DNA from: Candidatus Lindowbacteria bacterium RIFCSPLOWO2_12_FULL_62_27
Lineage (GTDB): Bacteria > Lindowbacteria > 2-12-FULL-62-27
Assembly: GCA_001784175.1 (NCBI GenBank)
Contig: MFPR01000017.1
Coordinates: forward strand, 93,024-157,023
Reading direction: 5' to 3'
DNA length: 64,000 nucleotides
In this document: in pieces, positions 6,762 through 22,836 of the stretch
Position numbering within the stretch: position 1 is the stretch's first letter
Layout: the number at the start of each line of letters is the position of its first letter
Program-made: the position numbers and the translations under genes
Notes under the pieces: generated by a model
Databases searched by the model: none
What the model was told of the DNA's origin: nothing
What the model saw: the letters and a program-made list of their open reading frames with translations, nothing else

Positions 6762-7958
6762 TCAGTCCTGCGCAATCGCCGCCTCCAAAATCTCCTGCCG
6801 CTTCCCGTGATCGCCCGTCAGGATCAGGCCGACCCAGTCGCCGTACAGGTTGACGCCCAGCGAACACTGGTACGCGATGTTGGAATAATATTTTTTCACA
6901 AGCTGTTTCGTGGAGGTCCTGTACCGGATCCTGTTGAACCGCCCGATCTGCATGCAGATCTTGTCGCACGTGGGCCGGAGGACGACCTTTTCGTTTTTCA
7001 TCACCTTCGCATACGCCGCCCAGATGTCGATGCCGGCGGCGTGGTTCATCATGTCGAGATGCACAAACCCCGGCGGCCGGGCGTTGATCTCGACGCAGTA
7101 GTAGTCCTCGCCGATCCTGAAGTACTCGATGTGGAAGAATCGCTTCCTCAGGCCGAAGCCCTTCACCGTGTTGAAGCCGATCTCCCTGAGTTTGGCAGGG
7201 ATCTCGGCCCGCTTCAGATTGTAGTAGTAAATGGTTTTGCCGGTGGTGGCGATCTCGAGGTCGCCGTCGTTGTAGACGTGCGCCGTGTAAAAAACGATGT
7301 CCCCCCACGGGTCGGTCAGGCCGTCGAACGACATGAACTGCCGGTGTTCGTCCTGAATGAATTTCTCCATGAAGTACGTCGTTCCCGGCTTCTTTTTCCT
7401 CCAAAACTGCTGGATGTCGGCCTCCGTCCTCAGCCGGTAGGTGTGCGCCGACCCGAGGCCCCGGTCGGGCTTCGCGATGATGTCGCCGCCGACCTCTTGC
7501 TTGAATGCCAGCATGTGGGCCACGTCCTGAATGATCTCCCCGCGGGCCGTCTGGGCGCCCGCGGCCTGAAACACCGGCTTCATTTTGGATTTTCGGATGA
7601 GCCTCTCAAGCTCGTCCGGCTTCAGGCCCTCGACGTCAAAATCCTGCCGGAGACGCGCATCGAGCGGCAGCCACCATTCATTGAACGATTCGACGGCCTG
7701 CGGCTTGCCATACTCTTTCGCCAGTCTCTCCACCTTCCGGCGGATGGGCAGATACTTCGACTCGATGACCCCGCCGTTCGGATCGTAGCAGTCCAGTTCC
7801 TGGCGGAGGTAACTGCGGAGCGATGACTTGAGATCCGCGTTCAGGCGCGCGTATGCCGCGTCGCCCATTCCGAGGACTTGAAAGCCGGCCGCCTTCAGCC
7901 GGGTCGCGAAATAATAGACGCGCGGGGGATAAGACGGGGACAGAATCAGGAAATTCAG
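6762..7958 (-). CDS. ATP-grasp domain protein (carbamoyl-phosphate-synthase-large-subunit-like small family)
   Basis: IIAKPDRGLGS, MEKFI, FFHIEYF and EINARPPG motifs. The family-like N-terminus (LNFLILSPSYP...VLGMGD) extends 30 codons upstream of the ATG at 7868 to a CTG at 7958; start uncertain. Confidence 0.8.
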   Translation of the reverse strand: MNFLILSPSYPPRVYYFATRLKAAGFQVLGMGDAAYARLNADLKSSLRSYLRQELDCYDPNGGVIESKYLPIRRKVERLAKEYGKPQAVESFNEWWLPLDARLRQDFDVEGLKPDELERLIRKSKMKPVFQAAGAQTARGEIIQDVAHMLAFKQEVGGDIIAKPDRGLGSAHTYRLRTEADIQQFWRKKKPGTTYFMEKFIQDEHRQFMSFDGLTDPWGDIVFYTAHVYNDGDLEIATTGKTIYYYNLKRAEIPAKLREIGFNTVKGFGLRKRFFHIEYFRIGEDYYCVEINARPPGFVHLDMMNHAAGIDIWAAYAKVMKNEKVVLRPTCDKICMQIGRFNRIRYRTSTKQLVKKYYSNIAYQCSLGVNLYGDWVGLILTGDHGKRQEILEAAIAQD

Positions 7959-7988
7959 AGGGAATGGGAACGGGTCTTGATTTGACTT

Positions 7989-10112
7989 CTAATACTGCTC
8001 AAGCTGATCTCCGCCGGTGGGTCCGGCGATCGCACGGGCTTTTTCCACGGGTTCGGCGATGCGGACTCTGTTCTCCCTCTCTGCAGTTCGCCCCGTATAC
8101 CGGGCGCTGCGGTGCATGGAGGCAATATGGGCGCGATTCAGAATGCGGCCCAATCCCACGAGACTGTCTCCGAACTGATCGATATACGCCATGATCGTTT
8201 TTTTCTGCTTTTCCGTGTGGTACACCTCGACTTCGATGCCTCGGGGGTCATGGTAATCAAAAGGCAGCGAGGCGAAATTGCCGTCCAGCAATTTCACAAA
8301 ATCGAAATGGAACTCGCCCCGGCTCAGGCCGTTCATGTCGAACAGTCCCTCCTTCCGCATCAGGCTGAACCGTTGCAACTCGTTCACATATTGTTCCGTC
8401 CGCTCATCCAACAGGCCCTTCTCCCTCAATAACTCACGGGCGGCGGCATAGGCGACCTCATGAAGCTCGGCCATGTGATAAAACACGGCAATGGCCCGGT
8501 ACTTGTAGATTTCATTGATGCCATATTCTCCCTTGATATATTTTTCAACAACGCCGGGCTCCAAAGTAAAAGCTCTGAGTTCATCTCCGCTTTCCCGCAA
8601 ATTGCTCTCCTCCTCCGGCGCAAAGTCCTTGTAGAATTTGGAAAGAATCTTGTTTTGATGCACCAGATCCAGAATTTTGAAGATAAAGTCGGACCGCAAA
8701 ATTCCCTGCTTGGACAAGAATTGCACGATGTCGAAGAAAATACCGTTGTTGTTGAACATCTCGACGGTCAGGCTCATTTCGCGGCAATCCCGGTAATCCT
8801 GGTAGGTCATGGTGCTGTTCGCGACGCAGATTTCCTCGATTTCGGCCGAAGGAAATCTTTCGCCCCTGAACTCGTAATATCCAAAGTTCATGGGTTTGAC
8901 CCGGAATCTTGTGATGTACTTGTACTTTCCCCGCGCCGCCTGGTCCGCCGCCTCCGTTCCCGCCAATAACTGGAATTGGTAGCTTCGAATCAAGGTAAAG
9001 CCGGTGTCGAGCACATCCTTGACGGATTTGAGATAGGCTCGCTTGCTGTCTCCGGGAAGACACAAAATAATTTCCGACACGCTGGCCGCGCCGTCCGTCT
9101 CCGCCGTTCTGGCCACCTCCAACAGCGCCTCCATGGGAAGATTGGTGCGCTTGATGGCTTTCAGCACTTCGGGATCCGTGCTCTGCACGGCGCCGCCGGG
9201 GTCGACCGACCCGCGGAGAATCCTGGAAATCTCCAATACGCGCTTTTTGTCGTTCTTGGAAGTGGCAATGATCACGAATTTGGGCCAGCCGACTTCCTCC
9301 TGCTTGGCCGCCAGATATTGGGCGGTCCGGATATCCTGCTCGTTGATCCCGAAGTTCAGGTCCGCAATGTACACGTCCGGCGCTCTGGCTCTCGCCGCGA
9401 TGTAATCGATTTCCCTTTTCACGCGCTCATCGGAAACCCGGCGAATTTTATTGAAATACGACGCGCCGTCATGACAAAACGTGCATTGATAGGGACAACC
9501 CCTCGACGTTTGAAAAATGGACATCAAATGCTCGTCGAAAAATTTGTCCATCAGGCCGGCTTCGAACACGGAGGGAACGCTTTCCAAGTCTTCGATCCGG
9601 GGCAGGATGGGACCCTTCACGTATTCGCCGTCTTTCGTCAAATAGGCGGTATTGGGAATCTTGATGCGATCCCGCTTGATCTTGTCGACGTTGAATTCAT
9701 TATCTTTGAGAATATTGTACAGCTCAACAAACGCCACCTCGCCCTCGCCTTCCACGCAAAAATCGGCCGCGTACCATTTTTTCAGAAAAGTTTTCTGTAC
9801 CGGCGGGTCATTCGGCCAGTTCGGCCCGCCAAACACCACGATCGTCTCGGGCGCGACGGCCTTTAAACGGCGGGCATATTCGTGGGAAAGGTGATTGTTC
9901 CAGGCAAACAGGGAAAAGCCGGCGATTCGGGGCGTGGTGTGACTGAGATACTGGTTGTAATCCTCCGGGTACTTGAAGAGCTGGAACTCCACTTCATCCC
10001 CCAGCGCCTTTTTGGCATAGGACGCCACCATGGCGATGCCGAGGGGAATGACATTGGCGGACACCAACTGCCCGGTATGAGTCAGATCGGCAAAACTGAT
10101 CTTGGTTGCCAT
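7989..10112 (-). CDS. Cobalamin-binding radical SAM protein (class B-like)
   Basis: N-terminal B12-binding domain (PLGIAMVASY, VFGGPN, GEGE); SRGCPYQCTFC CxxxCxxC motif; AGGAG RBS before the ATG at 10112. Confidence 0.9.
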   Translation of the reverse strand: MATKISFADLTHTGQLVSANVIPLGIAMVASYAKKALGDEVEFQLFKYPEDYNQYLSHTTPRIAGFSLFAWNNHLSHEYARRLKAVAPETIVVFGGPNWPNDPPVQKTFLKKWYAADFCVEGEGEVAFVELYNILKDNEFNVDKIKRDRIKIPNTAYLTKDGEYVKGPILPRIEDLESVPSVFEAGLMDKFFDEHLMSIFQTSRGCPYQCTFCHDGASYFNKIRRVSDERVKREIDYIAARARAPDVYIADLNFGINEQDIRTAQYLAAKQEEVGWPKFVIIATSKNDKKRVLEISRILRGSVDPGGAVQSTDPEVLKAIKRTNLPMEALLEVARTAETDGAASVSEIILCLPGDSKRAYLKSVKDVLDTGFTLIRSYQFQLLAGTEAADQAARGKYKYITRFRVKPMNFGYYEFRGERFPSAEIEEICVANSTMTYQDYRDCREMSLTVEMFNNNGIFFDIVQFLSKQGILRSDFIFKILDLVHQNKILSKFYKDFAPEEESNLRESGDELRAFTLEPGVVEKYIKGEYGINEIYKYRAIAVFYHMAELHEVAYAAARELLREKGLLDERTEQYVNELQRFSLMRKEGLFDMNGLSRGEFHFDFVKLLDGNFASLPFDYHDPRGIEVEVYHTEKQKKTIMAYIDQFGDSLVGLGRILNRAHIASMHRSARYTGRTAERENRVRIAEPVEKARAIAGPTGGDQLEQY

Positions 10113-10251
10113 GCGCAAACTCCTGATGACCTCCCCGTCACTCGACATTGAATGTCATAATGATATGGCGTGCGCCCTGGTTTGTCAAGGACGGCAGCCC
10201 ATTTTCGGCCCTGCTCGACTCGCCCGTTGGGATAAGGTAAGAGAGGAGGCC

Positions 10252-12132
10252 ATGCGGATTCTGGAGGAACGAAAAGGGGTCATCTATTTTATCCTGATCG
10301 TGTTCACGGTCAGCGTCCTCTACTACCTGACCCACATGATGAATTTCTTCATGTACAAAGTCTCTTTCACGGATGTACTCGGGAAAATCTACTACGATGC
10401 CGGCGAATACGCGCCGGAAGGATTCAGCCTCCACCTGTTCAAGCACAGCCCGACGCTCTATTCGGTCATCCCGTCCTGGCTGTACCGGGCGTTTCATATC
10501 AACGTCAAGATTCTCATGGAGGCGACGGGCTTCCTGATGATCTTCTTGTCCCTGCTCGGCATGGCCTTCCTCGCCGATGTGGGCCGGTCGGCCGACAGGG
10601 TCACTGCGTTTCTGTGTTCGGCCTATTTGCTATTTTCGGACATCGGCTTTGTGCCGCTCGGCAATCACTGGGCGATCACCGGCCAGGTCCTGACGGCGAG
10701 CACGTACGGCATTGTGTGCATGATGTTCGTGCTGGCGGCGTTTCTCAAGGCGAGGTACGTTCTGGCCGCGTTTCTCCTCGGCGTGACGTTCACCATCCAC
10801 GCCGGCAATGCCGTGATGGCCGGCCCGCCGCTCGTCGTGGCGTTCATCGCACGCGAGTGGAGATCGCCGGGCTGGATCAAAACACTGCTCCTGTCCGCGG
10901 GCTGTTTTTTGATCGGCACCGCGCCCTACTGGATCTTCCTGGCCCGCGAGCACAGTTACGTCAACTGGGTCGCCGGCGACGAGTTGAAATATTTCGAGTA
11001 CCTGCGGCTCAGCATGCACTATCACAGCCATCCGAGCGAGTGGCATCCGGCGAAATACATCACGTTCCTGACATTCCTGGCGGTCGGCTGGCAGGGCCGT
11101 CGCCTGCTCCGGCCGGACATCCGCGGGCGGTTTTCGGTCATGGTCGGCGTGTATGTCGCGATGGCCCTCGTGTTCGCGTTCTTCACGGAAGTCGTTCCCG
11201 TGTGGGCGATCGCCAAATTGTCGCCGTTCCGGCTGTTCACGCACCTGACCCTGCTTTTTCTTCCCTGCTACTTCCTGTATCTCCGGGAACTTCTGGTGGA
11301 CCAGGACCGGCCCTGGATGGGCGTGCTGGCGGCATGGACGCTCGGCGCCACCTTTTTCTCCGTCGACGGCCCGCCCATTGTTCCCTGCCTCTTTTTGCTG
11401 GCCGCGCCTGCGCGGCGGCGGGTCGTGGTCTCGATGCTGCTTCTCTGCGTGTTGTTTTCAGCCGCGCTGGTCATTCTGATTCCCGGCGATGCGCGTTTGA
11501 GTTCCGGCCGGATGTTGTCTTTCCTGTATTACGGCTCCTACCTCGTGCCGACCCCGTGGAAAATCGGCGTCACGATCGCGGTCCTCGCGCCCTTCTCAGT
11601 CGCATGGTTCCGGTTTCGCGGTCCGGAGGAACGGGCGCGGTTGTTTCTGCTGTTCATGGTCGCGTTCTGCGCGGCGCGGGGCGTCTACAATGTCAACGAG
11701 CGCGCCGCGAAGAACCCGCGGTCCGTCGATTATTACGGGATGCAGGTGTGGGTCCTCGATCACATTCCCAAAGACGCCGGCGTGATCATCGATCCGGAAC
11801 TCGGCGGGTTCCGCGATTTTGCGCGACGCAACGTGTTCGTCACGTGGATGGATATGTATTCGGGCCGGCTTCTCCCGTTCGTCTATGAAGAGGTCCTCGG
11901 CCGGTTCAACGACCTGACGATCTCCTACGACGAACTGCGCGGCGTCCGCAATTCGGCCCGGTCGGCCCACATCTCCGAGCGGTTCGCCAAACTCGATCCG
12001 GAGGTGTTCCGCCGGATCCGCGAAAAATATCCGATGTACCGGTACGTCCTCTATGTGAACGCCCGCGATCCGGTCATCCGCCTGCCGGTGATCCATAAAA
12101 ATGCGAACTTCACGCTGTGCGAAATCGACTGA
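10252..12132 (+). CDS. Polytopic membrane protein (GT-C/DUF6798-like), probably surface-glycan modification
   Basis: About 12 hydrophobic segments plus a soluble C-terminus (WVLDHIPKDA, FRDFARRNVFV); GAGGAGG RBS before the ATG at 10252. Confidence 0.6.
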   Translation: MRILEERKGVIYFILIVFTVSVLYYLTHMMNFFMYKVSFTDVLGKIYYDAGEYAPEGFSLHLFKHSPTLYSVIPSWLYRAFHINVKILMEATGFLMIFLSLLGMAFLADVGRSADRVTAFLCSAYLLFSDIGFVPLGNHWAITGQVLTASTYGIVCMMFVLAAFLKARYVLAAFLLGVTFTIHAGNAVMAGPPLVVAFIAREWRSPGWIKTLLLSAGCFLIGTAPYWIFLAREHSYVNWVAGDELKYFEYLRLSMHYHSHPSEWHPAKYITFLTFLAVGWQGRRLLRPDIRGRFSVMVGVYVAMALVFAFFTEVVPVWAIAKLSPFRLFTHLTLLFLPCYFLYLRELLVDQDRPWMGVLAAWTLGATFFSVDGPPIVPCLFLLAAPARRRVVVSMLLLCVLFSAALVILIPGDARLSSGRMLSFLYYGSYLVPTPWKIGVTIAVLAPFSVAWFRFRGPEERARLFLLFMVAFCAARGVYNVNERAAKNPRSVDYYGMQVWVLDHIPKDAGVIIDPELGGFRDFARRNVFVTWMDMYSGRLLPFVYEEVLGRFNDLTISYDELRGVRNSARSAHISERFAKLDPEVFRRIREKYPMYRYVLYVNARDPVIRLPVIHKNANFTLCEID

Positions 12133-12138
12133 GTGAAC

Positions 12139-12166
12139 TTGCGCGACAAGCCAAATACAGTAAAAT
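12139..12166 (+). promoter_or_regulatory. Candidate original sigma70 promoter of tRNA-Arg
   Basis: TTGCGC-N16-TAAAAT about 90 nt upstream of the leftmost tRNA 5' fragment. Confidence 0.4.
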
Positions 12167-12257
12167 GCACACATCCGTGTGTGCGCCCGCACCCTCCGTC
12201 GTCGGAATTACATCCATGTAATTCCGAAGTCCCGCCTTCGGGTACGGCCGCATCCAT

Positions 12258-12298
12258 GCGCCCGTAGCTCAGTTGGATAGAGCATCGGCCTTCTAAGC
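12258..12298 (+). repeat. att site 1: 5' fragment of tRNA-Arg(UCU)
   Basis: 41-bp identity to 22762-22802 (GCGCCCGTAGCTCAGTTGGATAGAGCATCGGCCTTCTAAGC). Confidence 0.95.
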
Positions 12299-12516
12299 TG
12301 ATCCACGCAAATTTCAATTTTTCAACGGCGTTCAGGATTATTCAGTAAGCGTCTGTTCCTTGTTGAATTATCTCCGCGTGTGATTTTCTGATTTCAGGAT
12401 TTTTCAGTTCGAGTAGGCGCAGTTCCGTCCCCTTTTGTCCCAAAAACCGGTACAAATCCGGTACAAGTTTGGAAGCGTGTTTCGTGGCGGATCATGGGCA
12501 GTCATCGCTGCTCCCC

Positions 12517-12554
12517 TTGCATTTGTAACAAAAATTGTGTACTTTTTGTTACAA
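12517..12554 (+). promoter_or_regulatory. abiEi promoter with overlapping inverted-repeat operator
   Basis: TTGCAT-N17-TACTTT overlapped by a perfect 12-bp inverted repeat TTGTAACAAAAA-N8-TTTTTGTTACAA. Confidence 0.7.
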
Positions 12555-12567
12555 CCATTGAGGCGGT

Positions 12568-13182
12568 GTGTTTATGCGATCTGTTGAAAGCAAGATGACC
12601 GGCAGAATATGCGAAAATGACAGGGGTTGGTGCTTTACTCCAAAATCGTTTTTTGGCCTTGGAAGTTCCCAGGCCATACGCATTACCCTTCACCGGCTTG
12701 AAAAACGGGGGACCATTCGCCGCTTGGCCCATGGTCTGTACGATTATCCCAAAAAGCATCCATCCATAGGCATTCTGTCACCGGATCCGAACGAGATAGC
12801 AAGGGCGTTATCCGTTCGCGATTCCACGCGCATTCAACCGTCCGGCGCTTATGCGGCTAACCTGCTGGGCCTGACGGAACAGGTTCCGGCGAAGATCATA
12901 TTTCTAACGGACGGCCCGGAACGGAGGGTCAGAATTCGATCCCAAGAGATAATCCTGAAGCGGACAACCCCCCGATACATGGCGACCGCCGGGAAAATCA
13001 GCGGAACGGTCATTCAGGCGCTTCGGCACATCGGTGAGGCGAATATCGCGCAATCCGGAATCAAAAGGTTGAGGAAGATGCTGAAGGATAAAGACAGGGT
13101 TCAGCTAAAACGGGACAAGAGACACGCGCCGGCGTGGATGCACCACTTGATTGATTCGATCACGGGTTCCGCCGATGCGTGA
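12568..13182 (+). CDS. Type IV TA antitoxin, AbiEi-like (DUF6088 family)
   Basis: FTPKSFFGLGS, LHRLEKRGTIRRLAHGLYDYPK, SGAYAANLLGLTEQVPAK and terminal APAWM motifs. Confidence 0.85.
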   Translation: MFMRSVESKMTGRICENDRGWCFTPKSFFGLGSSQAIRITLHRLEKRGTIRRLAHGLYDYPKKHPSIGILSPDPNEIARALSVRDSTRIQPSGAYAANLLGLTEQVPAKIIFLTDGPERRVRIRSQEIILKRTTPRYMATAGKISGTVIQALRHIGEANIAQSGIKRLRKMLKDKDRVQLKRDKRHAPAWMHHLIDSITGSADA

Positions 13183-13384
13183 ATTTGCGAAACTTCCGTC
13201 CTTGGAACGCGACACCATTTTCCTGGAGACGGCCAACCGGCGAGGGCTCTCCCGCCTGGTCGTGGAGAAGGACTTCTGGGTCTGTTTCACGCTGTCTCTG
13301 CTGTTCGAGTCAAAACAATTCGACTATCTGTTCGTCTTCAAAGCGGAGCAATGCGGAGGCTTACCAGATGATTTCCACGCCTGA
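13175..13384 (+). pseudogene. Truncated AbiEii/AbiGii nucleotidyltransferase toxin
   Basis: MREFAKL...VVEKDFWVCFTL...LFVFK; similarity stops where the GGTSL motif is expected and the convergent PIN gene follows. Confidence 0.85.
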
Positions 13385-13750
13385 TTTCTCCGAAATGTCG
13401 GCGTCTTTGGTGACGATGGCAACGGGTTCTTTGGTCAAGGCGGAGAAGGAGCGGGCGGTCGCAATAATGATGGCGTCATGCAATTCGAAGCCCGCGGGCA
13501 ACAGCGGAAAGAGCGCCACGTCCAAAGGAGCAAATTCAATATTTCGAATCCGGGACCATTTGCCGAGAAGGTCTTCAAAAATGGATGTCACTCGCCGGCG
13601 CTGGCAGAGGTGCCAGATTTCGCCGGCGACGATCGTCGGAACAACCAACCGGCCTGTCAGGTCGGCCATCGCCCCACGGGCCTTGGCCGTCAATCGGCGG
13701 TCATTTTCCAGAAACCATAACAGCGAGTGTGTATCGGCGATGCGGATCAT
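13361..13750 (-). CDS. PIN-domain (VapC-like) toxin
   Basis: IADTHSLLW, PTIVAGE, ELHDAIIIATA and IVTKD acidic PIN motifs. Confidence 0.88.
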   Translation of the reverse strand: MIRIADTHSLLWFLENDRRLTAKARGAMADLTGRLVVPTIVAGEIWHLCQRRRVTSIFEDLLGKWSRIRNIEFAPLDVALFPLLPAGFELHDAIIIATARSFSALTKEPVAIVTKDADISEKSGVEIIW

Positions 13751-13956
13751 GCTGGAAACGGTTTTATCCAGCTCTTCTTCGCCTCGTCGATCTCCTGGTC
13801 CGAAAAATGGATCTTCTTCCGCCAGATGCCAAAAAGATCCCGCATTTCGAGGGATTTACCCTGTTTTTTGCTCCGCTGGTTTACCGCCAATCGCAGAAAT
13901 TCAATCTGCCGTTCCAAGCTGTGAAGTTGTAACAGCACATAATCCGGTGTTGCCAT
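13747..13956 (-). CDS. Putative antitoxin of the PIN toxin
   Basis: 69-aa ORF with ATGA overlap onto the PIN gene; 'LFGIW....FSDQEIDEAKKSW' tail typical of PIN partners; RBS before the ATG at 13956. Confidence 0.7.
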   Translation of the reverse strand: MATPDYVLLQLHSLERQIEFLRLAVNQRSKKQGKSLEMRDLFGIWRKKIHFSDQEIDEAKKSWIKPFPA

Positions 13957-14141
13957 GGCGTTCCCCTTTCCTTCGCGCAACGGCTCGGATCCCATCGGAA
14001 CCGAACCCTTTTCATGCCGCACACAGTATATCCGCCGTTCCACTCTCCGTCAACATTCGCAACCATGAGCCGTTTGCCCCACGAATTGCGGGACGAAAGC
14101 CTCATCGCTGCGTGGCAGGGATGATGTACGGGAAAAAGATT

Positions 14142-14220
14142 ATTTGTGATTGGTGATTCCTAATTTGTGATTTGTGATTGCGATAATCACAAATGGGAAA
14201 TCACAAATCACCAATCACAA
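14142..14220. repeat. Palindromic heptamer-repeat element, copy 1
   Basis: Left arm of ATTTGTG/ATTGGTG units, right arm of CACAAAT/CACCAAT units; first 38 nt identical to 16745-16782. Confidence 0.9.
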
Positions 14221-14278
14221 GTCGCTTTCGCCGCATCGCGGCGTCGAGGTATTACACGACCTGGGGAGGTCGACTGAC

Positions 14279-16674
14279 ATGAAAAAGTTCGTACTGGGTT
14301 TACTTTTCGCTTTCCACTTTGCACTTTTCACTTGGAACGCCGCATGGGCGGACGTTCCAAAATATATATCCTTCCAAGGCGAGCTGACGGACTCGCAAGG
14401 CACGCGCATCACCAGCTCCAAAAGCGTGACCTTCAAACTCCACAGCGCCGCGTCCGGCGGGGCGATTCTCTGGTCCGAAGCGCAGACCCTGACGCCCGCC
14501 AACGGCATCGTGAGCGCGAGCATCGGAAGCGCGACGGCCGGCGGCGTGAATCTGGCGTTTGACACCGGTTACTGGCTCGGCGTGACCGTCTCCCCGGACG
14601 CCGAGATGTCTCCCCGCATTCGACTGACGACCTCCCCCTATGCGTTCATCGCCAAGTTCCTCGACACGGGCGCGACCGCCTACGGCGCGCTGTCGGTTGC
14701 CGAAACGGTGACGGCGAACAAGTTCGTCGGAAACGGATCGCTCCTGACGGGCATCACGGCATCCGCCGCGTCGGACACGGATTGGACGATTGCGACGGCG
14801 AGCACGATCTACCGGCTCTCCGGGAATGTCGCCATCGGCACGACCAGCACGGCGGACAGCTTGCAGATCGAAGGCACGCTCAACGTCGATTCGCCGACGC
14901 TGTATGTGGATGCGGCGAATAATCGGGTCGGCATTGGGACGGCGAGCCCGAACGCGACATTTGAAGTTAACAACGGGCAGTCCATGTTTCACGACGGCGC
15001 TTTCACCGATCCCCATACAGGCACGGCATATGACGCCAAGTTCGGGGGCCCAAACCGGGGCATCGGGGTCAAAGGGATATCTATTTTCAACGACAACGTC
15101 GGCATCGGCACAACGTCTCCGGCGGATTCGTTGCACGTCGCAGGCCGCATTCAAATGGACACGAACGCGGCGACTTCCGCCGCGGACGGCGCGATTCGGT
15201 GGTCGGGATCGGATTTCGAGGGCCGGAAGGCCGGATCGTGGGCGTCGCTGACGGCGACGGGCGGCGCGACGCCGGATACGGACTGGACGATGGTCGGCGG
15301 CACGATCGGGAACATCTACAGGAGCGCCGGGAATGTGGGCATCGGGACATCGAGTCCGTCGGATTCGTTGCATGTGGCCGGAACGGTTCGCGTTTCGGAT
15401 TCGATGACGGTCGGCGATACGGTGTTCGTGGTCAATTCAAAGAGCGGCAACGTCGGCATCGGCACCACAGGGCCAGCAAGTACGTTACACTTATACCAAT
15501 CAGGAGCAGGGCTCGTTATTCAAAATTCAGCCACAGCCGGGGTGGGCAATTTAGCATCTATACATTTTCGGAACCTGCTCGCATCTGGCGCAACTCACTA
15601 TGCCGCTATTATTAGAGGGGCTCAAGATAGCACTACCCAGAATAGTGGGCATTTAGAGTTTGTCACGTACAATAATGGCAATGCCGATGAGAGAATGAGA
15701 TTAACAAAAGAAGGCAACGTCGGCATCGGGACGACGGCGCCAGGGGCGAAGATGCACGTTGCCGTTGATAACTACGAAAGCATCCTGTTTGATCGGAGTG
15801 TAAATGTGAACTCCCCGAATAAGTACTCGATAGGCGTAAGCTACTCTGGCGCTGGCGCTGACTATCTCAGATTGGGCAAGACGGGCGGAGATCCATTCGT
15901 CATCAATCCAAGCGGCAACGTCGGCATCGGGGATACGGCTCCGGGGAGCAGGTTGGATGTAACGGGAGCGGCGCATGTATCTGATTCTTTTGCAGTGGGT
16001 ACTGCGGCGGGCGACCGTCTGGTTGTTACAACATCGGGCAACGTCGGCATCGGCACAACGACGCCGGGGGATAGTCTGGTTGTCAAGGGCGGAGTTATGT
16101 CGGACACACTGACAGTGGGAGACACGTTTTTGGTTGTATTAAAGAGCGGCAATGTCGGCCCGGCACGACGAGCCCTGGCGCTAAATTGCACGTCGCCGGA
16201 AATGTTATCGTCAAAGACACCATAACCGTCGGGGATACGTTCTTGGTCGTCCTTGCCAGCGGCCGGGTCGGAATCGGCACCGCAAGCCCAGATACCGACT
16301 TCTCTGTCAACGGCGGGGCATCCAAAGTCGGCGGCGGGTCCTGGGCGACCTTCTCCGATGGCCGCCTCAAGAACATCGACGGCCAGTACAAAGCCGGCAC
16401 GGCGGAACTCATGAAACTCAATCCCGTCAAATACCGCTACCGCGCGGACAATCCGGTCGGCATCAAGGATGGCGCGCCTCATATCGGCCCTGTTGCTCAA
16501 GAAGTTAAGGAAGCCATCCCGGAGGCGGTTGAATCGAACAACCAAGGTTACCTCATGCTCAACAACGACCCCATCATCTTCGCGATGCTGAATGCCGTCA
16601 AGGAACAACAGGTGACGATTGAGAAGTTACAGGGGAGAATCGAGGAATTGGAGAGGAACCAAGCGGCGAAATAA
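14279..16674 (+). pseudogene. Secreted GNVGIGT-repeat fibre/adhesin with C-terminal peptidase S74 (intramolecular chaperone) domain; 1-nt frameshift at ~16160
   Basis: GGGGAGG RBS and signal peptide; N-terminal 'ISFQGELTDSQG...LWSE...EMSPRIRLTTSPYA' domain; about 10 GNVGIGT repeats; WATFSDGRLKNI S74 motif and coiled coil lie in the second frame (ORF 16186-16674). Confidence 0.85.
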
Positions 16675-16744
16675 GATTACGGGCGGACCTCCCGCCAAAG
16701 ACCGGCCGGATGATGCATGCGCCATTTTAGATTGCCGTCGGGGG

Positions 16745-16820
16745 ATTTGTGATTGGTGATTCCTAATTTGTGATTTGTGATTTCAATCACAAATTGGAAA
16801 TCACAAATCACCACTCACAA
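16745..16820. repeat. Palindromic heptamer-repeat element, copy 2
   Basis: Direct repeat of 14142-14220; abuts the stop codon of the DUF2442 gene. Confidence 0.9.
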
Positions 16821-17087
16821 CTATTTTTTCTTTGCGTTCGGGGCAGGAGCGCCTCGAAGAAGTCCCTCCGTACTCAAATCCTCATCAATTTCCGGCCAGT
16901 GAATGCCGTACCCCCCGCCGCCGACCTGCCATTTTTTCCTTTGCTTCGGCGTGGCGTTCGCGAGTTTCGGATACCAAGCCAGAGGAACCGTGATGGTGCG
17001 GCCATCCGACAGGCTGACGCTCAGGTCAACCTCTGTGATTTTAACGTCTCTTACCCGTTCATCCGCGCCCAGAGCCAAAATACCCAT
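16821..17087 (-). CDS. DUF2442 family protein (TA antitoxin partner of DUF4160)
   Basis: LSDGRTITVPLAWYPKL.NAT...GIHWPEIDEDLSTEGLL signature. Confidence 0.9.
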   Translation of the reverse strand: MGILALGADERVRDVKITEVDLSVSLSDGRTITVPLAWYPKLANATPKQRKKWQVGGGGYGIHWPEIDEDLSTEGLLRGAPAPNAKKK

Positions 17088-17142
17088 GCCATGCCTCCAA
17101 GAATTCCAGTCGATGTTCCCTGACCAAGCGAACCGTCGGCAT
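17059..17142 (-). pseudogene. Internally deleted DUF4160 toxin (27 aa)
   Basis: Manual translation MPTVRLVREHRLEFLEAWHGYFGSGRG*: the family N-terminus MPTV is joined directly to the C-terminus ..EAWHGYFG, overlapping the DUF2442 start. Confidence 0.75.
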
Positions 17143-17231
17143 AACACGCACGAGTATACACGATTTCATGCATGAATTCAAAAAAACGGGCAACGTCGGC
17201 ATCGGGACGGCGGAGCCGCGACACCGGGAAC

Positions 17232-17444
17232 ATGGGGCATAAAAATATTTCGACGACTCGCCGGTACGCGCATCTTGAGCGAAAACAAAAACAGGAGGCG
17301 GTTGACAGTATTTCTGATCAACTCAGCGATGAGGCCGGCGATCCCCAGAATTCGAAGGCCGCGAGAAAATTGGGTTGGACAATTGCCCCGACTATCGTAA
17401 TATTTCAAGAAAGTGGAGGAGGCATCCATGTACGCATGCGGTGA
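17232..17444 (+). pseudogene. Tyrosine integrase C-terminal remnant (island 1)
   Basis: MGHKNISTTRRYAHL matches the LGH..TT..Y box II motif; points toward att site 2. Confidence 0.8.
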
Positions 17445-18994
17445 AAGGGCTGTTCCCGGATATGGTCGATGCGAAAATTTTGCACAAATTTTGCACAAGT
17501 CGATTTTGAATTGTCGCATTGTTTTGTAACTGTTTGATAATCCCAATGCGCCCGTAGCTCAGTTGGATAGAGCATCGGCCTTCTAATTCGTTGGAATGGT
17601 AAAGAAGATGCAGACCCATTTTCGCCATCTTCATCAACCATCTCATTCTGCGCCTGTAGCCACGCCTTCAACGTCTCCTCTGCACGCAACAATTCATCCC
17701 TCAACCCCGACGGCAACGCATCGGCGTAATCACGCTCCAATTCTGCAACCGTATGGCCAAAGTGTTTTGCGAGCCGTACCATGTCGAAGCTGATACGCGT
17801 TGCGGCGTGATACCAAACACTTGCCACAGTTTTCCGAAGGCAGTACGACGCAGCACCGAGCCTCTCTCCGATCAAGACACGAAACCTGTCAGACATTTCC
17901 GACGATATAGTATTCTCGCTACATTTTCGCTCCGCGAATTGTGGCAACAGCGCAACGACAGCGACGTCGCCAGAGCTATCAACAAACCTATCCCGAGCGG
18001 CATCATACTGTAATCCGCAATGTGTTGCATATGCACGCAACCCCGCAATCAAACGATTCGAGAGCATCATCACACGCCCGCGCCCGCGTTTTAACTTTTT
18101 CGATTTTTCATTTTTCGGTGGTACAAAAATTCCACGACGGGACAAGCGCACATGATCCCAACGGATACGACGCACCTGCGCGGCACGGTTGCCGGTCTCG
18201 CGTTCGACGAGCAACCAAAAATCTGTATCATCTACACTCGACAAGACATCATCAACCACACGTAACTCTTGACCTGTCAGGACACGCCAAATTTCTTGGC
18301 GCGTCGGCGATTGTGCTTCAAACCCGAGCGACCGCATACGCAACACCAAACGAATATTATTTTCCGTGACAAGTTTTTCCAGAATTCCTGCATCCACCAC
18401 ACGCGCCAACAACTCAATTTCTTTCTTGATCGTATTATCCTTTGAAAACGGCTGCGCACGCCGATATTCAACGTATTGCGTAAGGCGAGCCTGCGACACA
18501 ACAGAAATCTTGTCATTGCCAAAAAAACGCAACAACTTATTCAGGTCTGTTGCGTGGCGTTTACGTTGACCTCCGCTCTTAACCACTCTGAAACAATAAC
18601 CGTTTTCCTCGACGAATTTTTTTGCGAATCGGCCATTCGACGATGGAACATACCGTCCGACCTGCAATTTTGACAAAATACCGCATTGAGATGTTGCCAA
18701 ATGTTCTACAATTTCCTGCACCGTTAAATCCTGACAAACAGGATCGACAGCAACACCACGATGAACGATTGACAGCGCACGCTCAAGCGTTGACACTTCC
18801 ACATCACGCCGGGACAAGAGATTTTCTGTAGTCCCTTCCTCCGATACCTCACGCCGACGAATGCCGTCAAAGTCATAGTCTTCGACAACATCGGCTTGAC
18901 GACACATCAACGCCGTGGGAACATCTGGACGAGATCGATTTTCAGTTTCAACGGCCTGCGGCTGGCCCCGCAGGCTTTGTTTTTCCTCAAGCAT
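17405..18994 (-). CDS. int: Tyrosine recombinase/integrase whose ORF runs through the att site
   Basis: SAM-like domain (TIKKEIELL); catalytic R (ETGNR), K (KNEKSK), YCLRKT (HxxR variant), FGH, and Y (ERDYA); RRPMLYPTELRA is the antisense tRNA half. Confidence 0.85.
   Translation of the reverse strand: MLEEKQSLRGQPQAVETENRSRPDVPTALMCRQADVVEDYDFDGIRRREVSEEGTTENLLSRRDVEVSTLERALSIVHRGVAVDPVCQDLTVQEIVEHLATSQCGILSKLQVGRYVPSSNGRFAKKFVEENGYCFRVVKSGGQRKRHATDLNKLLRFFGNDKISVVSQARLTQYVEYRRAQPFSKDNTIKKEIELLARVVDAGILEKLVTENNIRLVLRMRSLGFEAQSPTRQEIWRVLTGQELRVVDDVLSSVDDTDFWLLVERETGNRAAQVRRIRWDHVRLSRRGIFVPPKNEKSKKLKRGRGRVMMLSNRLIAGLRAYATHCGLQYDAARDRFVDSSGDVAVVALLPQFAERKCSENTISSEMSDRFRVLIGERLGAASYCLRKTVASVWYHAATRISFDMVRLAKHFGHTVAELERDYADALPSGLRDELLRAEETLKAWLQAQNEMVDEDGENGSASSLPFQRIRRPMLYPTELRAHWDYQTVTKQCDNSKSTCAKFVQNFRIDHIREQPFHRMRTWMPPPLS
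17548..17586 (+). repeat. att site 2: 5' fragment of tRNA-Arg(UCU)
   Basis: 39-bp identity to 22762-22800, ending exactly at the end of the anticodon loop (CTTCTAA). Confidence 0.95.
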
Positions 18995-19352
18995 GAAAAT
19001 CCCTCCCCACTCGTGATTTTTGCATCATCCTAAAATCCAACCGCAACCCAAATCGCTTCGAAAATTTTTCCATGACCTCTATCTCCGTAATTGACAACAT
19101 ATGAAAATCCAACAACCGCCTAATCACACTTTCAACAACACGTTTATTTTTCATAATATCGTCAGCGGTCATAACGACACACCCACTGTACACAATAACC
19201 GCTCCTGTAATTGGATCAAAAATCACCCACACTTCATCTTTTTGAATGCGACGCAACAATAAATCAAAATACCCAGCATCTCGAAAATGCAATTTTAAAC
19301 AATCAATCAGTTTCCTTAACTGGCGATTCTCTAATTTTCTTTTTTCGACCAT
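18987..19352 (-). CDS. Hypothetical protein of element 2
   Basis: ORF overlaps both the RHH gene and int; likely start at ATG 19352 (or 19385). Confidence 0.6.
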   Translation of the reverse strand: MVEKRKLENRQLRKLIDCLKLHFRDAGYFDLLLRRIQKDEVWVIFDPITGAVIVYSGCVVMTADDIMKNKRVVESVIRRLLDFHMLSITEIEVMEKFSKRFGLRLDFRMMQKSRVGRDFHA

Positions 19353-19549
19353 CGCAACACCTTGCCTTTCTCGGTTGTCCGGCATCTGGACAAATATTCA
19401 CGGATCGCACGCCGGATCAAATATGAAATTGCGCGACCTTCGCGACGACCAAGAACACGAAGTCGCTCACGGTCGATCACAGGCATATACACGGTGACCG
19501 CCGCGCAACCTAATCCCTTCACATCCAGAAAATCCATTACCTTACTCAC
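19331..19549 (-). CDS. Ribbon-helix-helix (CopG-like) regulator
   Basis: VTVYMP..DRERLRVLGRREGRAISYLIRRAIREYL pattern; AGGAGG RBS upstream. Confidence 0.85.
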   Translation of the reverse strand: MSKVMDFLDVKGLGCAAVTVYMPVIDRERLRVLGRREGRAISYLIRRAIREYLSRCRTTEKGKVLRWSKKEN

Positions 19550-19564
19550 CTCTCACCACCTCCT

Positions 19565-19593
19565 ATTTTTCCTCCCACGATGTCTATTGTCAA
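19565..19593 (-). promoter_or_regulatory. Candidate promoter of the element-2 operon
   Basis: TTGACA-N17-AAAAAT immediately upstream of the RHH RBS, in the element's only sizeable non-coding gap. Confidence 0.5.
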
Positions 19594-19774
19594 CTCCTTG
19601 AGCTACAAACGGTAATGTATTATTTTTGTTGACAAATTAACTCCCATCAACACAAGCAATTACATCCAACTAACATCTGCTACTCTCCGCAATTATTTTT
19701 TCAAAGTCCCCATCTACACCCTATGTTATTAGGTTCAGCTCTCTTTTTCTTCGGGAGACCCCTTCTCCCGACCT

Positions 19775-21121
19775 CTACCCACTTTCCCCCTCTGACAAAA
19801 TCAAAGGAACCTGAACTTGTAACTCATCAAGTCCCCGACTCCATATGAACCGGCCGGGCGTCGCCGGCAATTTTGCAGATGCACCCGACCCGATTAACTT
19901 GACTGACATATCCAGATTTTTTAAGCGTCCGATCAGGCGGCACGGCAGATTATCCCGCAACTGACCATCCAGCACTCTTACATCTGGACGCTGCGTCGCA
20001 AGAATCAAATGGATCCGCGCTGCGCGACCCTTCATTGCAATGCGCTCAAGTCCCAACTGAATTTCCTTTCCATCTTTCCCGGACACAACGTCCGCAAGCT
20101 CGTCCACGACAAGCACCAGCGGCACGAAATCATCCGATCCGGTACGCGCCTGCTGGTATCGCTCGTCCATCTTCGACACAAGCGCAGTTATCAGCGACAA
20201 GAATTTTTCGGACTCAAACACGTATGCTTTCAATTTCGACTCGATACCTTTGTAGTCCGTCCCTTTCGCATCGATCAGCACAATATCAACACACTGAGCA
20301 ATCAGTTGCCGTATCAATCCCAACAGCACCGTTGTTTTTCCACATCCTGTTTCACCACCAATCAGCAAATGCACCATTTCGGTCAACGTGATCACCACGG
20401 ACCGAGAAAAACTCTCTCCAATGTACAATTGCCCCCTACCGGGGGCCGCGTCCGCATGCGCGGCCGCCTGCGCCCGATTCACCGCTTCTTTCACAGTCAA
20501 CTCAAACCGCCCCGGCAATGTTCCGGTTCCATAGTCATATTGGTAGCTACCTGCCCCGCACTCATGGAAGCTTTCAAAATGTCCGTTGTATTCATTCGCC
20601 AACCGTTCTGTTTCCATCCTCTCCCGGTCTGTACCGCGTGGCCGGAAATATAGTGTCACCGCGCGACCCCGCGAAAACTCCGCAATGAAGTCCGGCGGCT
20701 CACCCGAGCCACTGACAACTCCGGCACTCCGACAATGTTGCTCAAATTTTGTCGCTGAAATTCGCCATCGCAAATTGAACGCACAGCCGAACGAAAACAC
20801 CATCAACAGAAATGCAAGCAGAACCAACACGATCAACGGAAACGATCCGATATACTCGACAGGTTGCAGAAGTCCAACACCCAAAAGCAAAGTTCCAGAT
20901 ATGTATAAGTCAACCGGACGGAAGTACCACCGATCCGTCCGTAATTTCACCGAACAAAATCTTACCCAGCCATCAAGACCGCCGACCATCAACAAAAACA
21001 GAGACACAACAGATAACGTTCTCCTGAACGCCTCCAGCAGCGGAACATGACCGAACGCCTTCAACAGCCCGGCTACGATAATCGCCAGCCCAGCCGACAA
21101 GCAGACAATGAAACGCATCAC
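19775..21121 (-). CDS. FtsK/SpoIIIE-family ATPase with N-terminal TM helices (TcpA/TraB-like DNA translocase)
   Basis: HLLIGGETGCGKT Walker A, LIDAKG, LVVDELAD Walker B, GRAARIHLILATQRP. Confidence 0.92.
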   Translation of the reverse strand: MMRFIVCLSAGLAIIVAGLLKAFGHVPLLEAFRRTLSVVSLFLLMVGGLDGWVRFCSVKLRTDRWYFRPVDLYISGTLLLGVGLLQPVEYIGSFPLIVLVLLAFLLMVFSFGCAFNLRWRISATKFEQHCRSAGVVSGSGEPPDFIAEFSRGRAVTLYFRPRGTDRERMETERLANEYNGHFESFHECGAGSYQYDYGTGTLPGRFELTVKEAVNRAQAAAHADAAPGRGQLYIGESFSRSVVITLTEMVHLLIGGETGCGKTTVLLGLIRQLIAQCVDIVLIDAKGTDYKGIESKLKAYVFESEKFLSLITALVSKMDERYQQARTGSDDFVPLVLVVDELADVVSGKDGKEIQLGLERIAMKGRAARIHLILATQRPDVRVLDGQLRDNLPCRLIGRLKNLDMSVKLIGSGASAKLPATPGRFIWSRGLDELQVQVPLILSEGESG

Positions 21122-21525
21122 AGCCGGGAGAACTCCGATACATCTTCCGCACCTCGAACCGCCGTAGCCTTCAGCTTGCGCGGAGCCTTGTCGTCAGCCG
21201 AGATCGGCGACACAGCGTCAGGCAACTTCACATCATCCCGACGTTTTCTGCCCGAGTACTCCAATATCACCGCAGGATTAGGAAACTCCCTACAGCGATA
21301 GAACCTCTGACCTTTCCATTCGCGAACCCGGAACACATCCAAAACCATCTGCTTGCCGTCTGGCAGATCGATATGACCCGGAGAAGTCATATCGCAGCGG
21401 TAAAACTCCCGCGTACCCCGATCAACAAGCTCAAACGAGTACGCAAAAAATTTCTCTCCGGACTGTTTTGCTGTTACCTCACGCTCCCGAACATTTAGTA
21501 CAGGACCGGCTAAAATCATTTGCAA
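21118..21525 (-). CDS. Putative ssDNA-binding (OB-fold-like) protein
   Basis: Small beta-rich protein (ILAGPVLNVREREVTAKQSGEKFFAYSFELVD) between rep and the FtsK-like gene, with a disordered tail; assignment relies on position and pattern. Confidence 0.5.
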   Translation of the reverse strand: MQMILAGPVLNVREREVTAKQSGEKFFAYSFELVDRGTREFYRCDMTSPGHIDLPDGKQMVLDVFRVREWKGQRFYRCREFPNPAVILEYSGRKRRDDVKLPDAVSPISADDKAPRKLKATAVRGAEDVSEFSRL

Positions 21526-22574
21526 CCACCGCCCTCTCGTTGAAATTTTATCAGGTCAGCAACACTGCCAACCCAGTTCATTGACTCCGCGCGACGCAGA
21601 AAATTGCGCCACTTCTGGACGGAATCTATGCGGTACCACCACCCAATGCGTGCAAACTCCCGCGCAATCTCTCTATATTTTTTTGTATCTTCCTTGGGAC
21701 AGACGACACGACGACGCAACTCAAGAGTTTCCGTATCAGGGCGACGAAACGCGGACCACTCCGGAACAGGAACATCGTTCAAGACCGGAACGCACCGATC
21801 CAGCGACCAGTTCCAAATTCCCGAAAACTTTTGCTGGAAATCTGCGAACGTGTCAACTTTCAGATCATGCAAAACTGAACGACGCAATTCCACCTCGTAG
21901 CGTAAAACCTGAGACTTGCCGTCCCAGCCGGACCGCATCCAACGCTCAAACCAATCCTGTCGCGCCGGATTCTTTGTGACGTTGAGTTCATAGGGTTTGT
22001 CATACAAACGTGTCACCATATCCCCCGACCTGAACCAGTACCCGCTAAACCGCGAAGGTGTTCCATATTCCTTCGATTCGTATTTCCCGCCTTTCATTCT
22101 GCAAGACCAACCCCTCAACCCCAGAGACGCAAAATCTGTCTCCGGCACAAAATCCACGCAAACATCTACGCGCGATAAAATTTCACTTTCAATATCAGCG
22201 TGAGAACGTGCCAACTCCAATACGACACGCTCAACATATTCCAAATTTTCCGAGAGATTCGGACACGCACGTGATCTGAAAATGACATACAACTCTGGTA
22301 CGCCAACACTGTAACGCTGATGCGATGACAACCACCCCTCAACTTTTTTTATCTGTATCTCAATGCCCCTCGACTCATTCACCAGAGTAAAAGCGTAAGG
22401 ACCGCGACCCTTGCGGCGAACTTCCGAGTTTTCACCACCCAAGTCAAACCGCGCCGATCCGGTCTCCTGCGCTTGGAGCTTCAGCTTTTCCAAATCAGAA
22501 TTGAGACCTTCGCGCAGTACGACGCGCCGAGATACCATAAGCGTGTCGATGGCCGGACCGTGTAGAATCTTCAC
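21516..22574 (-). CDS. rep: Rolling-circle replication initiator/relaxase, Rep_trans-like
   Basis: IDTL, LSRVDVCVDF, RLYDK (catalytic Y) and VLRYEVELR motifs; GTG at 22574 has a GAGGTG SD (alternative GTG at 22583). Confidence 0.85.
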   Translation of the reverse strand: MKILHGPAIDTLMVSRRVVLREGLNSDLEKLKLQAQETGSARFDLGGENSEVRRKGRGPYAFTLVNESRGIEIQIKKVEGWLSSHQRYSVGVPELYVIFRSRACPNLSENLEYVERVVLELARSHADIESEILSRVDVCVDFVPETDFASLGLRGWSCRMKGGKYESKEYGTPSRFSGYWFRSGDMVTRLYDKPYELNVTKNPARQDWFERWMRSGWDGKSQVLRYEVELRRSVLHDLKVDTFADFQQKFSGIWNWSLDRCVPVLNDVPVPEWSAFRRPDTETLELRRRVVCPKEDTKKYREIAREFARIGWWYRIDSVQKWRNFLRRAESMNWVGSVADLIKFQREGGGCK

Positions 22575-22720
22575 GGACGCCACCTCTCGACAGTAGGCTC
22601 AACAGACGATACACGCAGACCATCCCTCGAAAGTTCAATTTTCAAATTGATTGTGATGTTGACGTGAGCTTCGGCCGACACGTTCAGGCCGTTGCTCACA
22701 GCCGATGGTCGCGTTAGACT

Positions 22721-22749
22721 TTGCTTTTCTCCGCTACCGTTTGTATCAT
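22721..22749 (+). promoter_or_regulatory. Element-supplied sigma70-like promoter for tRNA-Arg
   Basis: TTGCTT-N17-TATCAT ending 12 nt before the tRNA 5' end. Confidence 0.65.
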
Positions 22750-22761
22750 CATTACTTGTGT

Positions 22762-22835
22762 GCGCCCGTAGCTCAGTTGGATAGAGCATCGGCCTTCTAA
22801 GCCGAGGGTCCCCGGTTCGATTCCGGGCGGGCGCG
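22762..22835 (+). tRNA. tRNA-Arg (anticodon UCU), CCA not encoded
   Basis: Acceptor stem GCGCCCG/CGGGCGC, D arm GCTC..GAGC, anticodon arm TCGGC-CTTCTAA-GCCGA, T arm CCCGG-TTCGATT-CCGGG. Confidence 0.97.
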
Positions 22836-22836
22836 T

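Follow-up and report, generated by a model that had tools for sequence, protein, structure and literature searches.

A codon-locked 17-nucleotide word at the module joints of fibre genes in a Lindowbacteria genome: a probable short-homology seam

Introduction

Why should a short piece of coding DNA be spelled in the same way again and again within one gene, when the segments between its copies have little in common? The question is raised by a fibre gene in a 64,000-nucleotide (nt) stretch, hereafter the window, of the genome of Candidatus Lindowbacteria bacterium RIFCSPLOWO2_12_FULL_62_27 (assembly GCA_001784175.1, contig MFPR01000017.1, positions 93,024 to 157,023). The gene encodes modules in series, with the loop motif GNVGIGT(T)xPxxxL at the start of each, and at many of these joints the peptide GNVGIG is encoded by one 17-nt word, GGCAACGTCGGCATCGG. 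Here, we show that the word is invariant at the DNA level and sharply edged, and that breakpoints of homology between related fibre genes coincide with joints. We argue that the word is probably a short-homology recombination seam between modules, which would work without a dedicated site-specific recombinase.

Several systems offer themselves for comparison. In the R64 shufflon, the Rci recombinase, which is linked to its inverted sfx sites, acts by inversion. In integrons, with their IntI cassettes, the attC sites are long imperfect palindromes that fold as single strands.

For T-even phages, it has been suggested that conserved glycine-rich motifs of gp38 serve as hotspots of recombination in the shuffling of modules, and motifs of gp37 likewise in the distal tail-fibre locus (accessible part of PMC12032242, citing Tetart et al. 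1998 and Trojet et al. 2011). For the S74 subgroup of the MAT fibres of Bdellovibrio bacteriovorus, the accessible part of PMC10769870 gives a capping-loop consensus of V-G-G/N-pi-X-X-P-X-X-X-L; that part does not deal with DNA-level conservation or recombination between modules. A full-text literature search found no paper with the string 'NVGIGT'.

Results

The word is spelled far more uniformly than codon usage predicts

Exact copies of GGCAACGTCGGCATCGG lie in the window at 15446, 15713, 15914, 16037 and 17189, all on the plus strand, and a 16/17 copy, GACAACGTCGGCATCGG (DNVGIG), lies at 15092. All of these positions had been given correctly by a first-pass annotation of the sequence. A two-mismatch match at 60065 is unrelated. 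The seven matches compare with a mean of 0.04 in 100 dinucleotide-preserving shuffles, none of which reached seven. Four other joints (14822, 14921, 15329 and 16261, the last spelled GGCCGGGTCGGAATCGG, GRVGIG) had been described as synonymously diverged; they are indeed diverged, but not purely synonymously, since some of the differences are non-synonymous. One further copy had been overlooked, a broken joint at 16148.

Genome-wide (4.39 Mb, 44 contigs, 61.3% GC), there are 26 exact copies, distributed over four paralogous fibre loci (12 on contig C4, 3 on C7, 5 on C17 and 6 on C25). The word is used at 26 of the 38 places that encode GNVGIG, where codon usage in 998 long open reading frames (ORFs) predicts 6.5%. 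Measured against the fibre genes' own usage outside the joints, in a test that took in 9 of 11 genes, the probability of the word, P(word), is 0.022–0.032, and the exact copies number 4/5 on C17, 11/14 on C4 and 6/9 on C25. The excess over codon expectation is about twenty-fold or more; because the repeats are not independent, the binomial figures are not true probabilities.

The fibre frames of the genome hold 53 joint units. Tabulated over 40 units, the five codons of the word are nearly fixed (GGC 36/40, AAC 30/35, GTC 33/38, GGC 32/40, ATC 35/36). The sixth residue, Gly, is invariant (40/40), yet its codon is split between GGG (21), GGC (17) and GGA (2), and conservation stops sharply at base 17. 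Among the 325 pairs of exact copies, the tract of identity measures 20 nt at the median, 24 at the 90th percentile and 36 at most, and it extends beyond the word by an average of only 1.0 nt on the left and 2.0 nt on the right. With tracts so short the exact copies are not recent duplicates, and the 20-nt median rules out recent tandem duplication as the cause of their identity. The first-pass annotation had proposed conservation at the DNA level and a genome-wide count against codon expectation as its check. The count, the fibre genes' own usage and the sharp edge all bear this out, and codon preference does not account for the identity.

Homology between fibre genes breaks at the joints

When the window gene is compared by BLASTN with its own genome, a 542-bp block that is 89% identical to the C4 paralogue extends between the joints at 14921 and 15446. 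We extended this to an all-against-all BLASTN comparison of ten fibre loci from four genomes, taking matches of at least 120 nt. Joints account for 50 of the 69 match ends at ≥84% identity, for 103 of 151 at ≥80% and for 291 of 442 at ≥70%, against random means of 6.1, 13.6 and 37.8, respectively. Breakpoints of homology thus coincide with joints, as expected if the motif bounds modules. There is also a second kind of border, near 15256/15266, which lies away from any joint.

Canonical and variant joints behave differently in this comparison. At the 45 canonical joints (of 104), 75 matches end and 2 cross, whereas at the 59 others 60 end and 22 cross. Counted by joint, 2/45 canonical and 11/59 other joints are crossed at all (Fisher p = 0.037, which is indicative only, as the sequences are related). 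The variant spellings at 14822 and 15329 recur at homologous places in the paralogues and in the relative G002, inside blocks that travel together. At 14822, two matches cross and none ends, and the same spelling is found in C25 and on contig C244 of G002 (G002:C244). At 15329, three matches end and three cross, and C4 and C25 share the variant spelling at the homologous place.

The clearest single case is a polymorphic slot bordered by the joints at 14921 and 15092. Three mutually unrelated inserts occupy it, one each in the window, in a metagenome contig (L359) and in G002:C244, between flanks that are 84–90% identical. Homology is lost 6–8 nt past the left joint and regained inside the right one. 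Relatives with module replacements that break in the motif, a kind of evidence that had been named as something to look for, are at hand, and the module boundaries of homologues are concentrated at the motif.

Fibre DNA has moved between genera or paralogues

For comparison we had three other genera of the same family; all further sampled genomes are related to this one at the domain level only. DNA identity of MutS to two of the sister genera is 72–79%, with a synonymous divergence (dS) of 1.05–1.26; no MutS match was found in the third. A wider search with MutS gave one relative at 67%, labelled 'uncultured bacterium', and all others at 50% or less. Fibre segments differ by a dS of 0.28–0.30, both between genera and between paralogues, and the S74 part by 0.74. 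Single modules of 136–147 nt are 87–94% identical between genera. As the dS of the fibre segments is far below that of MutS, fibre DNA must have moved between genera or paralogues well after the genomes diverged.

The fibre gene is a predicted MAT-like protein, and a pseudogene in the window

The gene is read in two overlapping frames. The first (14279–16225) starts with MKKFVLGLLFAFHFALFTWNAAWA, which in translation resembles a signal peptide. It matches PDB entry 8ond (Bd2133) with E = 3.4e-10 over residues 454–616, and also 8oml (E = 2.8e-5) and 8ojn. The second (16186–16674) matches Peptidase_S74 (PF13884) at 47.1 bits, above a cut-off of 22; its translation holds SDGRLK, which fits the SDxxxK pattern, and the S74 part matches MyRF (7dc3, E = 2e-11). 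The two frames are parts of one gene, split by a frameshift at 16160–16161. The matches to 8ond and 8oml, and the likeness of the loop motif to the consensus in the accessible part of PMC10769870, support a predicted beta-helical body with recurring capping loops. Judged by these matches, the gene belongs to a multi-copy family of putatively secreted, S74-capped, MAT-like trimeric fibres, distant relatives of those of Bdellovibrio. The likeness to what that part of the paper describes covers the predicted beta-helical body with capping loops, the S74 domain with SDxxxK, and the many paralogues with different distal parts; the signal-peptide-like start and a putative conserved N-terminal domain may belong here too. 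The differences are an N-terminal domain that matches NCBIfam Bdello_MAT_N weakly (E = 7.5e-7; 29.1 bits against a cut-off of 60), a loop motif one residue longer, and the broken state of the window copy.

That copy is a pseudogene. The frameshift lies inside a joint, at 16148, and cuts off the S74 chaperone, so that no single open frame runs from the signal-peptide-like start to S74. Contigs from four public sequencing runs span the site with 0 gaps and 0 differences, and since they agree, the frameshift is not an error of this assembly. Three further fibre loci are present in the genome. The C4 paralogue is intact (1864 amino acids), the C25 paralogue is cut by a contig end, and the C7 locus is debris.

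Upstream of the intact C4 gene lies a long hairpin (L001:9162-9270; G000:C4:145161-145269). We rejected the idea that it is a microRNA precursor; the plant and animal Rfam matches behind it are below gathering scores and are spurious on a perfect hairpin.

Composition of the modules

The modules between 15463 and about 16147 had been called AT-richer and compositionally foreign. For the first of them the low GC is well founded. GC content at third codon positions (GC3) is 0.386 for 15446–15713, compared with 0.67–0.84 in the upstream modules and a genome median of 0.74 (80-codon windows, a background that includes some spurious long ORFs); only 1.9% of the genomic windows have a GC3 of 0.40 or less. 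The other modules are lower than their surroundings, but only moderately so (0.62 for 15713–15914, 0.46 for 15914–16037 and 0.58 for 16037–16148).

BLASTN against the gene's own genome gave no paralogue for 15480–15700 or 15765–15895. A DNA-guided search for a donor of the AT-rich modules gave one weak match (38%) in genome contigs and none in viral contigs. A protein search with the AT-rich module gave 3593 matches at E ≤ 0.001 among 8000 scored, the best non-self identity being 41–47%. Viral contigs likewise held no close relative of the intact C4 paralogue. It is thus composition that suggests a foreign origin for these modules, and the donor searches added nothing to it.

The word in other genomes, phages and communities

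Of the GNVGIG words in the three sister genera, 10/16, 10/11 and 5/6 have the exact spelling. One sister-genus locus (L009; G003:C48:2474-10366) has two tandem fibre genes, of 1078 and 1414 amino acids; the first lacks GNVGIG and has GxVGVG-type joints only, and the second uses the canonical spelling in 5/6 cases.

More widely, at least 118 of 401 genomes in an unselected sample have at least one GNVGIG word. Among the matches listed, the exact word accounts for 5/63 in G306, 4/26 in G183, 0/24 in G194, 0/13 in G067 and 2/12 in G014, where one variant spelling occurs five times. Because these other many-copy lineages are unlocked, locking is a property of some lineages and not of the peptide.

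The exact word itself was found in at least 131 stretches of genome contigs. About 70 chance matches are expected in the 596 Gb searched, so single matches in GC-rich genomes mean little; several Patescibacteria and one Planctomycetia assembly have many copies among the matches listed. Viral contigs gave at least 129 stretches. Among the matches listed there, all 93 units with full flanks lie in an open frame, 65 of them followed by Thr, and the flanks have a median GC of 0.48 and a minimum of 0.29. Of the genes chosen for holding the word, one from Doudnabacteria (GC3 0.41) has 5/6 exact copies with a P(word) of 0.0008, one from Patescibacteria has 9/23 and one from Planctomycetia 3/10; five phage records chosen in the same way have 5/5, 4/5, 5/17, 2/3 and 2/5. 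In the chosen genes of low GC, the GC-rich joint stands out plainly between AT-rich module bodies.

Also in Patescibacteria, a fibre ORF (L147; G402:C1:447000-466000) is open across the 19 kb examined and encodes at least 6286 amino acids. It includes at least four tandem copies of a 1584-nt unit, each with two joints of different fixed spelling.

Four groundwater and soil runs were examined for the depth of sequence that holds joints. Joint-holding bins reach depths from hundreds to 18574, against about 8–17 for the organism's own contigs, and their loose ends are diverse; the bin with the joint at 15713 reaches a depth of 5353–18574. From this excess it follows that many other sequences in these communities carry the word and its near flank.

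Neighbourhood and orphan joints

The features of the window are collected in Table 1. The fibre gene lies in a stretch of lower GC (0.45–0.55, against 0.61) from about 12000 to 22700, which ends at a tRNA-Arg(TCT) gene (22761–22836). With its DUF6088/AbiEi-like, PIN, DUF2442 and FtsK/SpoIIIE-like genes and a weakly recombinase-like ORF, the stretch from about 12000 to 22836 looks like a decayed integrative island.

Two 79-bp hairpin elements, which are nearly perfect palindromes in direct orientation, bracket the fibre gene but do not belong to the seam. Contig C43 has two further copies, 8.7 kb from each other (G000:C43:43449-43527 and 52193-52271), and another (L359:831-911) precedes the orthologous gene in the metagenome contig. 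The element may be a mobile hairpin element or a terminator.

The exact copy at 17189 is an orphan, a relic of about 40 nt in intergenic DNA. Similar orphans, intergenic and with 15–40 nt of joint flank, are found at G000:C4:139192 and at G000:C7:701, 1927 and 6505. In G002, a relic of about 140 nt (G002:C104, L011, about 1370–1509, minus strand) starts at the word, next to a tRNA gene and an IstB-like gene. In all six cases the DNA immediately before the word is unrelated, partly by construction, because the word was used to find them. The orphans may be scars of rearrangements among fibre genes.

A 224-nt non-coding element is 91.5% identical between G000:C4:139249-139470, downstream of the intact fibre gene, and G000:C7:6256-6479. 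It holds a dispersed repeat of about 30 nt, which occurs on at least nine other contigs, and has no Rfam match.

Table 1. Coordinates of the fibre gene, its joints and modules, and neighbouring features in the window
Feature	Position	Strand	Remarks
DUF6088/AbiEi-like gene	12568–13182		In lower-GC stretch
PIN gene	13361–13750	-	In lower-GC stretch
79-bp palindromic hairpin element	14142–14220	.	DNA fold -24.1 kcal/mol, z = -7.3
Fibre gene, first reading frame	14279–16225	+	Putative conserved N-terminal domain, then modules in series, a joint at the start of each
Non-canonical joint GGGAATGTCGCCATCGG (GNVAIG)	14822–14838	+	Inside conserved proximal block
Joint AATCGGGTCGGCATTGG (NRVGIG)	14921–14937	+	Left border of polymorphic slot
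Polymorphic module slot	14938–15091	+	154 nt here, 229 nt in L359, 427 nt in G002:C244
16/17 joint GACAACGTCGGCATCGG (DNVGIG)	15092–15108	+	Right border of slot; exact 17-mer here in L359
Non-canonical joint GGGAATGTGGGCATCGG	15329–15345	+	Inside two-module block inherited as a unit
Canonical joint	15446–15462	+	End of block 89% identical to C4; 6 BLAST-match ends, 0 crossing
AT-rich module	15463–15712	+	GC3 0.386; no DNA homologue in genome or relatives examined
Canonical joint	15713–15729	+	Exact copy
Second unique module	15730–15913	+	GC3 0.62
Canonical joint	15914–15930	+	BLAST matches start 15910–15914
Canonical joint	16037–16053	+	BLAST matches start 16034–16037 or end 16053–16068
Broken joint	16148–16163	+	CC after GGCAATGTCGGC, in place of the ATC of intact copies; one base missing
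Second reading frame	16186–16674	+	Last modules, GRVGIG joint at 16261, Peptidase_S74 chaperone
Second hairpin copy	16745–16820	.	92% identical, z = -5.7, about 70 nt past stop codon
DUF2442 gene	16821–17147	-	In lower-GC stretch
Orphan fibre-joint relic	17178–17218	+	About 40 nt; exact 17-mer 17189–17205, intergenic
Tyrosine recombinase C-terminus fragment MGHKNISTTRRYAHL...	17232–17306	+	Adjoins orphan joint; tblastn best E = 0.001, to C-termini of other recombinase genes in genome
529-amino-acid ORF, weak tyrosine-recombinase likeness	17405–18994	-	PF00589 20.7 and 23.2 bits, below cut-off 27.1
FtsK/SpoIIIE-like ATPase	19775–21121	-	In lower-GC stretch

Discussion

The reading that we favour, and hold to be rather probable, is that the word is a seam between modules at which short homology allows recombination. 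It would provide a short in-frame patch of DNA identity where modules are replaced, lost or gained. Exchange would proceed by general short-homology recombination, between paralogues and between genomes; we prefer a general process because no feature of a site-specific system was found. Two explanations for the fixed spelling suggest themselves: a continual renewal of joints through exchange with a common pool of modules that also reaches phages and Patescibacteria, or the persistence of lineages whose identical joints leave them able to reshuffle. The role of the word as the physical substrate of crossover is something we infer, as is the recombination pathway used.

Several points weigh against this interpretation. 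Tracts of 17–24 nt are at or below the homology usually said to be needed for RecA-dependent recombination. No recombinant was caught in the act: the copy-to-copy joints listed in the run contigs have sides of at most 31 nt and are repeat artefacts, and the apparent skips between joints in the contigs of the four runs, with sides of 19–31 nt, derive from repeats or from other organisms and are no evidence either way. The donor of the AT-rich modules was not found in genome contigs, in viral contigs or by protein search. Many-copy lineages in the unselected sample spell the motif variously, and the Patescibacteria, Planctomycetia and phage examples were selected for their copies of the word. 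Nor do the four genera bear independent witness to the spelling, because fibre DNA has been exchanged among them. The assemblies are built from short reads, and module order may in part be chimeric between paralogues, though depth co-varies across the pieces in the four runs. Finally, random recombination followed by survival of in-frame, fold-preserving products would also place breakpoints at joints, and selection on the protein must in any event contribute to where breakpoints are observed.

This last point leads to the strongest alternative, in which the word is a by-product: the peptide, together with selection for accurate or fast codons or a constraint on the mRNA, would hold the spelling, and survival of the fold would place the breakpoints. 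All five codons are indeed the commonest synonyms in the genome (GGC 0.55, AAC 0.68, GTC 0.46, ATC 0.70). The joint is also the start of a structural loop found repeatedly in the solved MAT fibres (the match to PDB 8ond and the accessible part of PMC10769870), and protein selection must filter recombinants whatever the mechanism. An explanation from accuracy or optimal codons is insufficient, however, because the codon of the sixth Gly, an equally invariant residue, is not locked. In addition, the same GC-rich spelling is found in genes with a GC3 of 0.40–0.48, where its codons are uncommon and P(word) is 0.0008–0.008 (in an ascertained sample), variant spellings lie preferentially inside co-inherited blocks, and other lineages with the same peptide are unlocked. 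We therefore regard the by-product explanation as unlikely, while granting it a real share of probability.

It has also crossed our minds that the canonical GGCAACGTCGGCATCGG(G/C)AC serves fibre modules across lineages as a 'splice word', its spelling maintained in spite of the local base composition so that modules from very different genomes can be joined in frame. Its reach would be phages, Patescibacteria, some archaea-labelled assemblies and this bacterium, and it might be read by a sequence-specific factor. We consider this extension of the idea doubtful. If true, it would amount to a common grammar for an exon-shuffling-like evolution of host- or prey-recognition fibres.

The shufflon- or integron-like route of the first-pass annotation, in which the 17-mer would be the core site of a dedicated system with a tyrosine recombinase, fared badly, and we think it very improbable. 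What speaks for it comes from the orphans: the one at 17189 adjoins a recombinase C-terminus fragment and lies 200 nt from the recombinase-like ORF, and five further intergenic orphans lie beside dispersed repeats or, in the sister genus, an IstB-like gene. The sharp edges of the word would also fit. The predicted linkage, on the other hand, did not appear: the genome has 14 matches to Phage_integrase (PF00589), none of them on C4, C7 or C25, and a search with this general family found at the arrays only the sub-threshold ORF beside the window gene. That ORF is a neighbour and a candidate recombinase-like gene, for which we claim no action on the joints. Every copy within a gene stands in coding orientation and in frame, with no inverted repeats of the shufflon type; because all copies are direct, inversion of that type is impossible. 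The joint shows neither dyad symmetry nor an attC-like palindrome or single-strand fold (-1.3 kcal/mol with its flanks, z = +1.1), and Rfam gave only a tRNA and spurious microRNA-precursor matches on long hairpins. Phages, Patescibacteria and this lineage all carry the word, and no neighbour common to them was seen, although none was looked for. Its sub-words show no excess outside the fibre loci. The same count disposes of a Chi-like hotspot, as no 7- or 8-mer sub-word exceeds Markov expectation there.

That the mosaic and its foreign-looking modules are chimeric short-read joins across a word common to many organisms is hardly credible. Contigs C7 and C25 and several of the relatives', all from short-read assemblies, do end inside fibre genes; assembler contigs of the four runs break at joints, and very many other contigs in those runs carry the word. 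But depth matches in the four runs across the pieces on both sides of each joint, as for 15193–15454, 15427–15737 (a piece that includes 19 nt of the upstream module) and the next piece (12.2/15.7/13.7 in run X1, 6.4/10.1/9.1 in run X4). Moreover, three records that were assembled separately, each with long flanks, show the slot polymorphism, and the spelling statistics are independent of module order.

Among known systems, then, a short-homology seam of the kind proposed for T-even gp37/gp38 appears to be the best reading. As the accessible part of PMC12032242 describes that locus, short conserved glycine-rich motifs lie between variable segments, and in-frame shuffling is proposed without a dedicated recombinase. 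In the present case, too, the motif is repeated in the gene and alike at the DNA level, and relatives differ by whole segments. The differences are that these are chromosomal bacterial genes for putatively secreted, S74-capped trimeric fibres; that one 17-nt word (12 exact copies on C4) is locked at all five synonymous sites here; and that the spelling is common to phages and Patescibacteria of other base composition. The likeness to shufflons and integrons is more general, in that the distal part of an adhesin, or a gene array, is diversified by cassette rearrangement at short repeated sites. The copies described here differ from shufflon sites in being direct, with no linked recombinase on C4, C7 or C25, and from integron sites in lacking a single-strand fold. 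What is new is thus a seam that is cellular, sharply codon-locked and common in its spelling to very different genomes; the strategy itself has already been proposed for phage fibres.

Such fibres determine the targets to which a phage, a predator or an ultra-small symbiont can attach. If a word of 17–24 nt suffices for modules to pass from paralogue to paralogue, from genus to genus and perhaps from phage to cell or back, whole communities would draw their binding repertoire from one shared, recombining pool. The joint would then serve as a marker, both for module borders in unannotated fibre genes and for exchange in metagenome time series, and as a handle on how little homology natural recombination needs. 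Taken alone, the window is a modest case, a clear and statistically strong cellular example from a bacterial lineage about which little is known; its weight would grow if the idea of a cross-lineage word holds.

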